8,041 nt of DNA, from IMG/VR virus record IMGVR_UViG_2737471861_000016; one strand, written 5' to 3'. The notes beneath the pieces were generated by a model, which saw only the letters and a program-made list of their open reading frames with translations, was not told the origin of the DNA and did not search any database. The stretch is from a virus. Its lineage: Duplodnaviria; Heunggongvirae; Uroviricota; Caudoviricetes. Of the stretch, positions 150 through 5,842 are shown in pieces. A program made the translations under genes and the position numbers. Position 1 is the first letter of the stretch. Each line of letters opens with the position of its first letter.

Positions 150-1151
150 ATGGTTCCCGGATGGATTGACCCCGATACTTTCAAGTGCAATGAACACGCT
201 GAGACTGTAAGACTGATTTTCAAGCTGCTGCTAGATGGTGAAAGTCTGCATAACATCGCCCGTCACCTACAGGCTAATAACATTAGTTCATTCTCACGGC
301 GTAAAGATGCTAATGGTTTTAGCGTTCATTCTGTGCGTACTATCTTAAGGTCAGAGACAACGAGAGGTACACTACCAGCATCACAGCGCAATGACCGCCC
401 CGCTATACCGAACTACTACGAAGCCGCTATAGATGCTGCAACGTTCAATAAGGCTCAAGAGATTCTCGACAAGAATCGTAAAGGCCGCACACCTGCAAGT
501 GATAACCCATTAACGATTAACATCTTCAAAGGTCTGTTTAGGTGTCAGTGTGGGGCTAGTGTCCATCCTACCGGAACAAAGAATAAGTATGCTGGGGTCT
601 ACAGGTGCAATAACCACTTAGACGGTCGCTGTGATGTTCCACCGTTGAAGCGTAAACCGTTTGATAAGTGGATGATTGATAATTTTCTGGGGATGATTGA
701 CGTGGGGAATGATGGAGAAGCAGAGGGGAAGATTGCATCTCTACAGCATGAGGTTGAAATTGTCACAACCAGAATCAAGAAAGCTACCGCCCTACTTCTT
801 GAGATGGATGATATTACAGAGTTGAAAACACAGGTGAAGGAACTGAACCAGAAGCGCACAGAACTACAGACCACGATTGATAGCATGAGGCGTAAAACTT
901 CACTCAGTGATAAGGGATTACCCCAACTTAAAGATATTGACCTTATGACTAAAGAGGGTCGTGTCGAGTGTCAGTTGATTTTGTCCAAGCATCTAAAAGG
1001 GCTTACATTGGGTAAGGATTCGGTAACTGTAACGCTACAGAACGACACTGAAATAACCATACCTACAGACCCGCTACCGCTAAATGATGGAACATCAATC
1101 TTTGAAATTGCTGAGAAAAATCTTTTGAATATTGACACTTTCCAACTGTAG
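150..1151 (+). CDS. Large serine recombinase, C-terminal portion (recombinase domain, zinc ribbon, coiled coil); catalytic domain not present in this ORF
   Basis: Translation matches the serine-recombinase 'recombinase' domain pattern (IDPD...ETVRLIFKLLLDGESLHNIARHL...FSVHSVRTILRSETTRG), followed by a Cys-rich zinc ribbon (FRCQCG...YRCNNHLDGRC) and a long coiled-coil stretch. No Shine-Dalgarno precedes the ATG at 150, and the in-frame upstream codons 12-149 encode a helix that looks like the end of the catalytic domain, so the ATG is probably an internal Met. Confidence 0.8.
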   Translation: MVPGWIDPDTFKCNEHAETVRLIFKLLLDGESLHNIARHLQANNISSFSRRKDANGFSVHSVRTILRSETTRGTLPASQRNDRPAIPNYYEAAIDAATFNKAQEILDKNRKGRTPASDNPLTINIFKGLFRCQCGASVHPTGTKNKYAGVYRCNNHLDGRCDVPPLKRKPFDKWMIDNFLGMIDVGNDGEAEGKIASLQHEVEIVTTRIKKATALLLEMDDITELKTQVKELNQKRTELQTTIDSMRRKTSLSDKGLPQLKDIDLMTKEGRVECQLILSKHLKGLTLGKDSVTVTLQNDTEITIPTDPLPLNDGTSIFEIAEKNLLNIDTFQL

Positions 1152-1182: not shown

Positions 1183-1971
1183 TCAATATCTCTTGTTCGG
1201 ATTCACTGAGTACTTTTTAAGCTTTGAAGCTACTCGACCAGCGTTACTGTTAGCATTGGTGACGTTGGTTTTTTCAGCTTCTGTTAAGTCTGAATAGTCC
1301 AGCTTCCAAGCCTTATTACATTTAATCTGAGCATCGAGAATATCATTTCTGATAGCTGGAGCGTAACCGGATACATCGTTAATACTCATTAGCTCTTTGC
1401 ACGATAGCATAGGCGCGTTATTGCGTTCAGTGGTCACGTTACCTGCATTCTTCTTACTGGTCACACCACCGTCATTTGTAGTAGCAGTCTTTCCAGTTGC
1501 AGCCGAAATATCAGTTTGTCCCACGACAGCTTTAAAGTTAATTTCCTGAAAAGTTAGCTGGATACGAAGACCGTTAGAGATAGTAACATCTTTAGAGGCT
1601 TTAAAGCTCGTAATAATGGAATCATCAATCTTGATACCGTCTTTACAGATAACTGAAATAATTTGCTTCTGGTCTCTCCAGCTCTCAAGAGTGTCAATGA
1701 AGTTTTCTACTAATTGACCCTGACGAGTTAATAATAAGCTCCCTTCATAGCCAACTACAACGACACCACTAATAGTGATTGTTCTGGGTGCTCTTTGCAC
1801 GTTATCTGTAACGGTTTGCCCTGATTGCATGTTCTGTGTAGTTACCTGCATAGGACTATCAAATTCCATGTTCTCAGTTGCTGATAAGGTTAAGAAGGCA
1901 TCTACATTATCTCTTAAGTGGAAATAGATGCCGTCTTTGCCACTGTAGCGGATTTGATTGCTAAAAATCAT
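1183..1971 (-). CDS. Hypothetical protein (262 aa) immediately downstream of the tape measure gene; possible tail component by position only
   Basis: ORF with an internal ATG at 1971-1969 preceded by AAGGAG at 6-nt spacing (minus strand AAAGGAGAATTTAATG). The track's upstream TTG at 1992 lacks an RBS. No motif recognised. Confidence 0.6.
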
Positions 1972-1988
1972 TAAATTCTCCTTTGATT

Positions 1989-2032
1989 TCAAAGGCTTAG
2001 TGTATTTTAATCATTTTTAACCAAGCCTTTGA
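1989..2032. promoter_or_regulatory. 10-bp perfect inverted repeat (TCAAAGGCTT / AAGCCTTTGA) with 24-bp spacer, just upstream of the RBS of the 262-aa gene
   Basis: Arms at 1989-1998 and 2023-2032 are exact reverse complements. No T tract follows on either strand, so this looks like an operator or RNA structure rather than a terminator. Confidence 0.45.
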
Positions 2033-2127
2033 TATATAAGTACTTTCTCTGTTAAGCGTGAGCTACGTAAATTCTATTTTTCAGTGCGGGTATTAACTTT
2101 GCTTTATTCACGTAGAACACCGTTAAA

Positions 2128-4308: not shown

Positions 4309-4338
4309 TCATGTTTCACCTCTTAAGTGTTCATATAC

Positions 4339-4379
4339 GAAAAAGGGGAGGACCAACCAATTAAGGTTAATCTCTCCCC
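4339..4379 (-). terminator. Intrinsic terminator or attenuator candidate in the 93-bp gap directly upstream of the tape measure start
   Basis: On the minus-strand transcript: GGGGAG (pairs 4374-4379 with 4345-4350), an inner AACC/GGTT stem around AATTAA, then CTCCCC followed immediately by TTTTT. About 30 nt further on lies the tape measure RBS. Confidence 0.5.
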
Positions 4380-4401
4380 GTATTCACCCAACCAATCTTT
4401 T

Positions 4402-4611
4402 TTAATGCCTGACAAGATAATGTAGTTCCGTTTCACCTATAATTTGAGCATCGGAAGGGATACGGTCGATACACCACTTTGGAATCTTGCGTGTTTTTGG
4501 TTTGTGTGAGGTGATAACTTGACGTTTGTTTTTAATTCTTAAGGCTGGATTGGCTTGTAACTTTAAGTTTTCACAAACAGACCGAATAGTCTCTAAACGC
4601 TCTTCAAACAT
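4402..4611 (-). CDS. Hypothetical small basic protein (69 aa)
   Basis: ATG at 4611-4609 preceded by AAGAGGTGATTA, almost the same RBS as the tape measure gene. An in-frame stop lies just upstream, so it is not a frameshift extension of the 235-aa gene. Confidence 0.5.
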   Translation of the reverse strand: MFEERLETIRSVCENLKLQANPALRIKNKRQVITSHKPKTRKIPKWCIDRIPSDAQIIGETELHYLVRH

Positions 4612-4634: not shown

Positions 4635-5342
4635 TTAAAGTGCCTTTGCATATTTCTGAGAAATCTTCGTAAGCTGCTCAATATCAGCCTGCATAGCAAC
4701 CTTCTTCTGCGACTCATATTCACTAACAAGGTCTTTCATAGCCTGAAGCTCTCTTGAGAGATACAACTTAACATTATCAAGTTGCTTGTTACGTGATGCC
4801 AAGATGTTCTGTCTGGCAAGTTCACAGAGTTCTTCATCGCTCTTATTAGTCATGTAAATAAACTGACCAGCACCTCTTGATGCCTTAACCATCTTCACAA
4901 TTCGGTGTCCATCAGGAAGATTATTAATCACGTCTGGGATATTCTCAGGAAAAGTACCAAAACCATCATTGTCTTCATATTGGTGATAAACAAATGGTTT
5001 CTGTGACAATTCATCCTGAATCTCAAATTCTGACGGTTCAATAGCTGATTGCATCAGGGTAACTTTGCTGTAAGCGTCATCTAATCTAAGACGCTGTGCT
5101 TTTAAAGCTGGGTAATATTTCTTTTCAAGCTCAAGCAATGCTTCAGTTTTGCAGATATCAGGCATTTCTTGAGGTTCAGGGGCCACAAAGGTGATTTCTT
5201 TTGGCGACCTCTTTAACTCTTGCTCAAACTTAATTCTTTCATCGTGCTCTTTGCGCTGAATAGCGATAGCTGGATGTTCAGTCTGTGGTGACCAGTCACC
5301 GAAGCTATCAATCTTTTTACCGTTAATATATAGATTTTCCAT
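4635..5342 (-). CDS. Hypothetical protein (235 aa) with a charged, probably coiled-coil C-terminal third
   Basis: ATG at 5342-5340 preceded by AAGAGGA at 7-nt spacing. C-terminal region (ELARQNILASRNKQLDNVKLYLSRELQAMKDLVSEYESQKK) is helix-like. No family recognised; it does not look like a beta-rich major tail protein. Confidence 0.6.
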   Translation of the reverse strand: MENLYINGKKIDSFGDWSPQTEHPAIAIQRKEHDERIKFEQELKRSPKEITFVAPEPQEMPDICKTEALLELEKKYYPALKAQRLRLDDAYSKVTLMQSAIEPSEFEIQDELSQKPFVYHQYEDNDGFGTFPENIPDVINNLPDGHRIVKMVKASRGAGQFIYMTNKSDEELCELARQNILASRNKQLDNVKLYLSRELQAMKDLVSEYESQKKVAMQADIEQLTKISQKYAKAL

Positions 5343-5351
5343 TTCATTTTC

Positions 5352-5413
5352 CTCTTCTAAGTATATTCAGTTTTTAAAAAGCACACCTGACAGCCTATCT
5401 AAACTTAGAAGAG
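5352..5413 (-). promoter_or_regulatory. 11-bp perfect inverted repeat whose downstream arm overlaps the Shine-Dalgarno of the 235-aa gene (possible RBS-sequestering hairpin)
   Basis: CTCTTCTAAGT (5352-5362) and ACTTAGAAGAG (5403-5413) are exact reverse complements. In the minus-strand mRNA the 3' arm ACUUAGAAGAG runs into the SD AAGAGGA. The 40-nt loop contains nested TCAG/CTGA and a TTTTTAAAAA palindrome. Confidence 0.45.
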
Positions 5414-5577
5414 ACTTAAAAGGCGGTTTGCCAAGTATGCTTTTTAAAAGCTGAAAAAAGCCCTAAACATAGGTGATTCGGATATTCATGGAATCATCCT
5501 TATCTGTGAAGGGCTTTGAAGGTTTGCTTATAACGTTAACGAAGTTTCAGGAAAAACTTTCTTTAAAAGTTCTGTTT

Positions 5578-5616
5578 GAAAACTCTTAAAGAAACGCCCT
5601 AACTCATGATTAGGGC
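5578..5616 (-). terminator. Intrinsic terminator or attenuator candidate inside the long leader
   Basis: Minus-strand transcript: GCCCTAA (5616-5610), loop TCATGAG, TTAGGGC (5602-5596), followed by GTTTCTTTAAGAGTTTTC. The plus-strand orientation has no U tract. Confidence 0.45.
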
Positions 5617-5763
5617 AAAGCTGTAAGGGTTCAATAATGAATGATTAAGCACTTTTTGAGATGACCTCTCAGACTAAACTGAAAGGCCATGACGAAAAGC
5701 ATTGCACCTTTCCAATCAGAATATAGTTATCATCGATGTAGAGACGATTAATAGTTTAATTCA

Positions 5764-5780
5764 GGAAGAGTTGCTCTTCC
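5764..5780. promoter_or_regulatory. Perfect 7-bp stem, 3-nt loop hairpin (GGAAGAG ttg CTCTTCC)
   Basis: Exact inverted repeat at 5764-5770 and 5774-5780. It lies just downstream (minus-strand sense) of the candidate promoter at 5789-5817. No U tract follows, so it is a 5' stem-loop or protein-binding site rather than a terminator. Confidence 0.4.
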
Positions 5781-5788
5781 CTATTACC

Positions 5789-5842
5789 ATCATCTCATGC
5801 TTAAGATTATTTGTCAACAGCTTTTTAACAGATTGGTAACAT
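5789..5842 (-). promoter_or_regulatory. Candidate minus-strand promoter and operator: TTGACA -35 with weak -10, plus three phased (C/T)AACA(G/T) repeats
   Basis: Minus-strand TTGACA (plus 5812-5817), 17-bp spacer, GATGAT (plus 5789-5794). The plus strand carries CAACAG 5815-5820, TAACAG 5826-5831 and TAACAT 5837-5842 at exact 11-bp spacing. The core TTGTCAACA is shared with the 7197-7205 promoter region. Confidence 0.4.

Follow-up and report, generated by a model that had tools for sequence, protein, structure and literature searches.

A conserved inverted repeat, probably an mRNA stem-loop, beside a ribosome-binding site in the island-specific spacer between two tail genes of Escherichia coli

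Described systems and the setting of the locus

Stem-loops in mRNA that set the differential stability or expression of genes within an operon are familiar from the REP hairpins of malE-malF, the processing of papBA, and the 5' hairpin of ompA. A second group of RNA structures, represented by ermC-type leader attenuation, RNA thermometers, and the long-range pairing between coat and replicase in MS2, works as switches between Shine–Dalgarno (SD), anti-SD, and anti-anti-SD segments. The hairpin described here, which we call HP2, has features of both. Like the first group, it is a stable hairpin in the spacer of co-directional genes (presumably transcribed together here), with an AU-rich single-stranded linker in front of it and a further element, HP1, just past the upstream stop codon; unlike in simple stabilizer hairpins, conservation extends from its shape to its sequence, and it carries an SD/anti-SD relation. 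Like the switches, it has three segments of which the middle one can pair with either neighbor, one of the two pairings hiding the SD, and a short vestigial ORF is present in its loop. It differs from them in that its open state is the more stable by 10 kcal/mol and in that a trigger, a stalling peptide, or a temperature-sensitive design is not evident, and in that the mini-ORF is not conserved as coding sequence.

The PLE satellites of the myovirus ICP1 in Vibrio cholerae carry a partial tail module consisting of a tape measure protein (TMP), a tail chaperone, and the baseplate hub BhuB; a large serine recombinase and the assembly of chimeric tails are among their features (PMC12987554). This tail module is the closest described counterpart for the genomic context of our locus, a chromosomal island that likewise combines a large serine recombinase with a TMP gene of its own and an adjacent baseplate gene, both homologous to genes of a virulent myovirus, and that has no annotated capsid or terminase. 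The two differ in several respects. The host here is E. coli and the candidate helper a Felixounavirus. The Dit-like protein of the island is 75% identical to that of the phage, as against 41% for BhuB of PLE. PLE has a tail chaperone, whereas the E. coli island has no recognizable chaperone homolog; its 69-aa and 235-aa proteins show no homology to the tail chaperones gp117 and gp116 of the Felixounavirus garuso.

The window, by which we mean the whole stretch of 8,041 nucleotides analyzed, is 100% identical to the E. coli chromosome NZ_AP042701.1 and is not a phage. An earlier note on this DNA had spoken of an operon; the setting is not a phage operon but a satellite-like chromosomal island of ∼14 kb between tonB and yciI (L002 9023-22814). 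Of 5,426 complete E. coli genomes, 468-496 (∼9%) have a related island, and such islands are also found in Shigella and E. albertii. The genes encode a large serine recombinase, the Dit-like protein, the tape measure, several small unknown proteins, a DnaD/HTH-like protein, a Dam methylase, and a small resolvase, and no capsid, portal, or terminase gene is annotated in the island. A PADLOC search of the island for defense systems returned an orphan methyltransferase only, and our literature search found no published description of this E. coli island. By analogy, we regard it as a candidate satellite or tail-interference element. In the present strain, ISEc12 of the IS21 family interrupts the gene for the large serine recombinase (window 150-1151 on the plus strand; L002 9023-13132), and many other strains have IS2, IS66, or other transposase insertions inside the island or next to it, which suggests that the island frequently decays or becomes immobilized.

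All genes relevant here lie on the minus strand (Table 1). The earlier note had called the gene next to the repeat the one after the tape measure, and both identities are borne out by domain matches upstream and downstream. The TMP stop codon (2130-2128) is followed by a spacer of 156 nt (1972-2127) and then by the ATG of the Dit-like gene, and on the mRNA the spacer reads HP1, AU-rich linker, HP2. The first 180 residues of the Dit-like protein are nearly identical to garuso gp119; in DNA, more than 200 Felix O1-like phages match nucleotides 1438-1956 at ∼91% identity, and this homology to Felixounavirus DNA stops 15 nt inside the Dit gene.

Table 1. Features of the spacer, its flanking genes, and the second repeat (window coordinates)
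Feature	Position	Strand	Remarks
Tape measure protein gene, 726 aa	2128..4308	-	PF20155, phrog_4036; 33% identical to Felixounavirus garuso TMP
HP1 palindromic cassette	2063..2115	-	arms CUACGUGAAU (2115-2106) and AUUUACGUAG (2072-2063); 33-nt loop
AU-rich linker CUCACGCUUAACAGAGAAAGUACUUAUAUA	2033..2062	-	conserved, single-stranded, between HP1 and HP2
HP2 5' arm UCAAAGGCUUGGU	2020..2032	-	fold and pair counts; includes the SD look-alike
HP2 loop	2002..2019	-	inner pairs 2019-2003 and 2018-2004 beyond bulged C2002; diversity 0.016
Vestigial mini-ORF in HP2 loop	2014-1997	-	AUG AUU AAA AUA CAC UAA (MIKIH)
HP2 3' arm ACUAAGCCUUUGA	1989..2001	-	CCUUUG (1995-1990) is the complement of both the 5' arm and the true SD region
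SD and start codon of the Dit-like gene	1969..1983	-	AAGGAG 1983-1978, 6-nt spacer, ATG 1971-1969; diversity 0.003-0.02
Dit-like "phage baseplate protein" gene, 262 aa	1183..1971	-	PF21821; 75% identical to garuso gp119
Helix A/A', CAGCUUUUAAAAAGCA with UGCUUUUUAAAAACUG	within 5340-5470	-	conserved inverted repeat upstream of the 235-aa gene
Helix B/B', CUCUUCUAAGU with ACUUAGAAGAG	within 5340-5470	-	crosses A/A'; B' overlaps the SD

Diversity in HP1 is 0.07 in the conserved arms and 0.30 in the loop, which varies in sequence at a constant length; TAnnnT (2076-2071) is invariant inside this variable loop, with no usable -35 element. HP1 and the first part of the linker recur directly upstream of the TMP gene in some islands, where they supply its RBS, and the 21-nt linker motif is likewise found upstream of the TMP gene in other islands. 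This upstream copy of HP1, which comes after a terminator-like hairpin, is missing from the present window. Among the islands, it is present or absent as a precise insertion or deletion (L045 ∼4337-4420), and in L045 it sits right behind the terminator-like hairpin. In the window, a hairpin resembling a terminator, GGGGAG...CUCCCC with UUUUU behind it, separates the 69-aa ORF from the start of TMP (4309-4401, minus strand), so that TMP expression in this copy would need read-through or an unrecognized promoter.

The spacer distinguishes the islands from the phages. In garuso and in every other contig of ∼87-90 kb (∼30 phage-sized contigs), the TMP stop overlaps the Dit start (GAGGAAGAATAATG) and there is no spacer. 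The island-sized contigs examined all have a spacer, 96-235 nt long, except for two, L183 and L184 (31-38 kb), in which the junction is uninterrupted. Nearly every island copy has HP1 in its spacer, and most also have HP2. A second class of island, represented by 16 distinct copies, has HP1 without HP2 together with a different 5' end of Dit, and the spacer of these HP2-less islands is bordered by a 9-bp direct repeat, AACAATGTT. Given this flanking repeat and the uninterrupted junction in the other contigs, the spacer behaves as an insertion relative to the phages. In the HP2-less islands (L025 and L024), the displaced original start codon opens an 18-codon hydrophobic mini-ORF (MLELLIFIATHGNLLIFI). 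A blastn search of the spacer against 50,697 phage records gave chance AT-rich matches only, and motif searches of the complete garuso genome were negative for HP1, for the linker, for the HP2 loop, and for the 16-bp palindrome discussed below; mimicry of helper-phage regulatory sites is thus unsupported. A search of plasmids gave no match.

Structure and conservation of the spacer hairpin

The repeat that drew attention to this spacer consists of TCAAAGGCTT (1989-1998) and AAGCCTTTGA (2023-2032), which are perfect complements of 10 bp each, 24 nt apart. The earlier note had located it correctly beside the RBS and had placed it 5 nt from the AAGGAG site, which on the minus-strand mRNA is the distance from the end of the 3' arm to AAGGAG. 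In minus-strand RNA, the stem of HP2 extends to 13 pairs, and two more pairs past a one-base bulge give a 15-pair model. Folded alone, HP2 reaches -16.7 kcal/mol (z = -5.5), and the fold of the whole spacer has z = -3.6. By chance, 1.4% of dinucleotide shuffles of the 156-nt spacer (P ∼0.014) contain a perfect inverted repeat whose arms reach 10 bp or more around a loop of 3-40 nt, and ∼0.48 such repeats are expected per 8-kb window, against two observed, both of them intergenic. The repeat is therefore only mildly improbable by chance, and the case for HP2 depends on comparison with related sequences.

Searches for other kinds of signal in and around the spacer were negative. A scan of both strands over 1700-2500 revealed no intrinsic terminator (the HP2 stem is followed by AAUCAAAGGAG), and a sigma-70 promoter scan of the same interval found no site against 2.6 promoter-like sites expected by chance; the spacer thus holds no obvious internal promoter or terminator. 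An Rfam search of 1972-2127 gave no match even at E ≤ 1. An RNase III site at HP2 was considered and rejected, as HP2 offers only 13-15 contiguous pairs and the stem-loop at 5340-5470 is the better candidate. We also rejected a pseudoknot between the HP2 loop and the start-codon region, in which 13 of 14 bases are complementary: all the pairs are A-U and covariation is absent, and the complementarity is due to the duplicated, near-palindromic AATGATT.

The comparison covers 77 distinct sequences with HP2, taken from genomes of E. coli, from Shigella and E. albertii, from gut metagenomes, and from IMG/VR. They were retrieved by the 21-nt linker motif and chosen for GAAATCAAAGG context, so that these motif positions are conserved by construction and the positions between them are not. 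Conservation in homologs had been proposed as a check on the repeat, and in these 77 the pairing of HP2 is retained: in the 15-pair model, 98.7% of cells hold a standard pair, and sliding the 3' partner by 1-3 columns lowers this to 20-53%. Changes confined to one side, most of them to or from a G-U wobble, leave a standard pair at five pairs; in 15 cells the pair is broken. At the pair 2026/1994, G-C is found in 61 sequences, G-U in 14, and A-U in one; at 2018/2004, A-U is found in 75 and G-C in two. In the loop part of the model, U-A has become U-G in three sequences. In all, three more pairs gain a wobble (C-G to U-G or U-A to U-G), and a fourth changes from G-U to A-U. Double changes are limited to two pairs in three sequences (three cells), and one of these pairs was added post hoc after inspection of the data.

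How far this variation supports the pairing can be judged in several ways. The ∼5 pair-preserving types of variant (25-27 cells) stand against ∼9 rare pair-breaking types (15 cells), which is not clearly better than neutral expectation for transitions. The observed covariation score was reached in one of 500 shuffles, a control that can be beaten without any structure since the sequences are closely related. Pair-preserving variants reach 16 of the 77 copies and pair-breaking ones at most four. The strand is informative as well: variants that are legal wobbles on the sense strand fill 27 cells, compared with nine for C-A or A-C, legal only in antisense. That the wobbles are legal only on minus-strand RNA argues for an RNA structure of the coding strand and not for a DNA site. 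Taken together, the alignment appears to give no more than moderate support to the pairing of HP2, and the covariation in it is thin.

The same variants bear on the suggestion of the earlier note that the repeat could be a dimeric protein operator. Here, a regulator of the island or of the helper phage would bind TCAAAGG half-sites in DNA, as operator or roadblock, using a 16-bp palindrome CCTTTGAAATCAAAGG that lies over the RBS and a third half-site 34 bp upstream. There is something to be said for such a site, as CCTTTGAAATCAAAGG is a perfect 7-2-7 palindrome, three half-sites fall inside 53 bp, TCAAAGG occurs seven times in the window against 1.6 expected, conservation of the primary sequence runs through the loop and the linker, and the island encodes HTH proteins. 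However, the commonest polymorphism, C to T at 1994 (16 of 77 sequences), breaks the DNA symmetry of both palindromes and keeps the RNA pairing as G-U, and in one lineage with this change the other arm has changed in compensation. On neither strand is a promoter-like site within reach, and the centres of the 10-bp arms lie 34 bp from each other. The other four copies of TCAAAGG are outside the spacer (at least three of them in coding regions), and copies of the spacer motifs are absent from a complete Felixounavirus genome. Binding of a regulator to DNA is therefore disfavored, and we consider it distinctly unlikely. Another DNA-level candidate, a hix/gix-like site for the island's 180-aa resolvase/invertase, was rejected. 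Sites of the Hin/Gin type were sought as 26 bp with two 12-bp half-sites like TTATCNAAAACC, in two inverted copies; by manual comparison with the consensus, the half-sites match at 7 of 11 and 3 of 11 positions, which is poor, and no second hix/gix-like copy exists as a partner in the 32-kb locus.

Diversity is low throughout HP2 and its surroundings: the arms stand at 0.04, the loop at 0.016, and the stretch spanning SD and AUG at 0.003-0.02, compared with 0.31 at third codon positions of Dit and 0.40 at those of TMP. The loop is conserved as much as the stem, or more. A plain hairpin would not call for this, and the conservation of the loop hints either at a sequence-specific partner or at a recent common ancestry of the island backbone. 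A further explanation is that the repeat has no dedicated function and arose incidentally, when a small tandem duplication or an insertion took place where TMP and Dit meet; the apparent conservation would then reflect a young island backbone whose flanking genes have repeatedly been replaced by recombination with diverse phages. Indeed, the flanking genes vary as allele blocks, one of them the block of ∼91% identity to Felixounavirus DNA that ends 15 nt inside Dit, and stem and loop are equally conserved. The direct repeat AACAATGTT around the HP2-less spacer, the uninterrupted junction in other contigs, and a duplication signal inside HP2 (see below) would fit this explanation too. It accounts less well for the contrast within a single spacer, where the HP1 loop has diverged to 0.30 and HP2 stands at 0.02-0.04, for the difference in frequency between pair-preserving variants (up to 16 of 77) and pair-breaking ones (at most 4 of 77), and for the retention of the hairpin in E. 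albertii and Shigella. We hold a functionless repeat to be unlikely, though worth serious consideration.

Pairing around the Shine–Dalgarno sequence

The earlier note had also observed that one arm mimics the SD and that the other resembles an anti-SD, and this is literally true: TCAAAGG is found at 2032-2026, inverted at 1995-1989, and again at 1986-1980. The longer stretch AUCAAAGG is identical in the 5' arm and around the true SD. CCUUUG (1995-1990) can hence pair with the 5' arm or with CAAAGG of the true SD region (1985-1980), and the alternative CCUUUG:CAAAGG helix is 99.1% paired across the 77 sequences. The two states are unequal, with HP2 at -16.7 kcal/mol and the alternative that sequesters the SD at -6.5 kcal/mol. 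For the commonest allele, the prediction with HP2 formed leaves the SD 33-82% unpaired; for the allele of the window, the SD is predicted to be mostly paired even then. When the 5' arm is masked in silico, the first four bases of the SD become fully paired, with P(unpaired) ∼0. The unequal states and the exposure of the SD next to HP2 suggest that the SD is open by default, and it would take an external trigger to close it.

The 5' half of HP2 also resembles a decayed tandem copy of the true RBS and start, in which ATCAAAGG, AATGATT, and TACACTAA occur with their order kept. The local alignment score between HP2 and the RBS is 31, against 19.4 ± 3.6 in shuffles (P ∼0.008).

From this geometry, one can construct a translational switch of three segments, in which HP2 (SD open) would alternate with the CCUUUG:CAAAGG hairpin (SD closed). 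The trigger would be the occupation or removal of the 5' arm by a small RNA, a protein, RNase cleavage, or a ribosome at the AUG of the loop, and the switch would adjust how much Dit is made in proportion to the tape measure protein. In favor of a switch, none of the three segments is missing and each is nearly invariant; 99% of the alternative helix is paired; and the SD closes in silico once the 5' arm is masked. The resemblance of the 5' half to an RBS and start counts for it as well, and a trans-acting partner would fit the high conservation of the loop. On the other hand, 10 kcal/mol separate the two states, and the alternative helix shows no double changes, its bases being already constrained by HP2 and the SD. 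Our search for a trigger found none. Ribosomes arriving from upstream cannot open HP2, since the stop codon of TMP comes 95 nt before it, and the phage sequences searched hold no match to the loop. As a leader peptide, MIKIH was rejected: the AUG of the mini-ORF is lost in 4 of the 77 sequences and a 1-nt insertion shifts its frame in 5 of the 77, which is not the pattern of a conserved peptide. Of the proposal that alternative pairings modulate translation, the part that stands is that one arm can pair with either copy of the SD sequence; the switch itself, as modeled, looks rather doubtful to us.

A second structure in the window is relevant to the same question. The inverted repeat noted at 5352-5413 is real, 11 bp long and perfect, and it is conserved in 29 distinct copies, its 3' arm overlapping the SD of the 235-aa gene. 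In a divergent copy (L077), both the repeat and the second helix that crosses it are kept with a different sequence. The minus strand of 5340-5470 folds at -46.4 kcal/mol (z = -5.1), with a predicted main helix of ∼26 pairs, with one internal mismatch, beneath a short 4-nt internal loop. Since this repeat is conserved and overlaps an SD, RBS-proximal structures do recur in the island, as the earlier note had proposed, and a second conserved repeat of this kind would also favor a switch at HP2. Upstream of these helices, a promoter-like TTGACA-17-GATGAT (with TG) at 5817-5789 on the minus strand is followed by a terminator-like hairpin at 5617-5595. Both lie within a non-coding stretch of 575 nt, and from their sequence the region 5595-5817 could yield a small RNA of ∼190 nt.

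Proposed role of the hairpin and meaning of the spacer

We favor, with about even confidence, a reading of HP2 as a cis-acting stem-loop of the sense mRNA in an island-specific spacer between TMP and Dit, with a constitutive role in which the RBS is kept open or the downstream message is stabilized. The structure of HP2, its conservation, its strand specificity, and its insertion relative to the phages are shown by the sequence analysis; that HP2 is transcribed within this mRNA, and that it affects translation or mRNA stability, we infer. A constitutive role is preferred since no trigger for closing the SD was found. In this model, the upstream SD look-alike (UCAAAGG...) would pair with the anti-SD-like CCUUUGA to build the stem. 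The stem would lock the anti-SD away and insulate the RBS, and the true SD five bases downstream would stay available, allowing the Dit-like gene to be translated independently of the tape measure gene. The abutting stop and start codons of the related phages, judged by their sequence, are an arrangement that may permit translational coupling. Standing behind HP1 and the AU-rich linker, HP2 probably also gives 5'-proximal protection to the downstream message after processing or internal initiation. Against this reading speak the island class of 16 distinct copies that has no HP2 at all and the predicted pairing of most of the SD in the window's own allele even with HP2 formed.

A more elaborate version, speculative and the least probable of those we considered, combines several of these elements. 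The spacer would be a satellite-specific expression module, put by the island as HP1, linker, and HP2 into a junction at which the genes of the helper phage abut and overlap, in which HP2 arose from a duplicated RBS and start of Dit and works as a decoy-RBS switch, its loop read by a factor of the island or the phage, setting the ratio of baseplate protein to TMP during infection by a Felix O1-like phage. If so, could control by a decoy RBS decide whether chimeric or poisoned tails assemble?

Returning to the constitutive stem-loop that we favor, the hairpin is an ordinary type of signal, an mRNA hairpin adjoining an RBS, of which it is a new example. The hairpin itself is routine, and the island context with its inserted spacer is the more interesting result. 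An island present in about one in eleven E. coli genomes has copied the tape measure and baseplate-initiator genes of virulent Felix O1-like phages, and it has replaced the phage's abutting, overlapping gene junction with a conserved spacer of its own, which we read as regulatory. The spacer is, moreover, a compact sequence marker that separates the island copies of these tail genes from those of the phages. If the island is a satellite or tail-interference element, as the analogy with PLE would have it, the spacer would be an obvious handle on the expression of its tail proteins.
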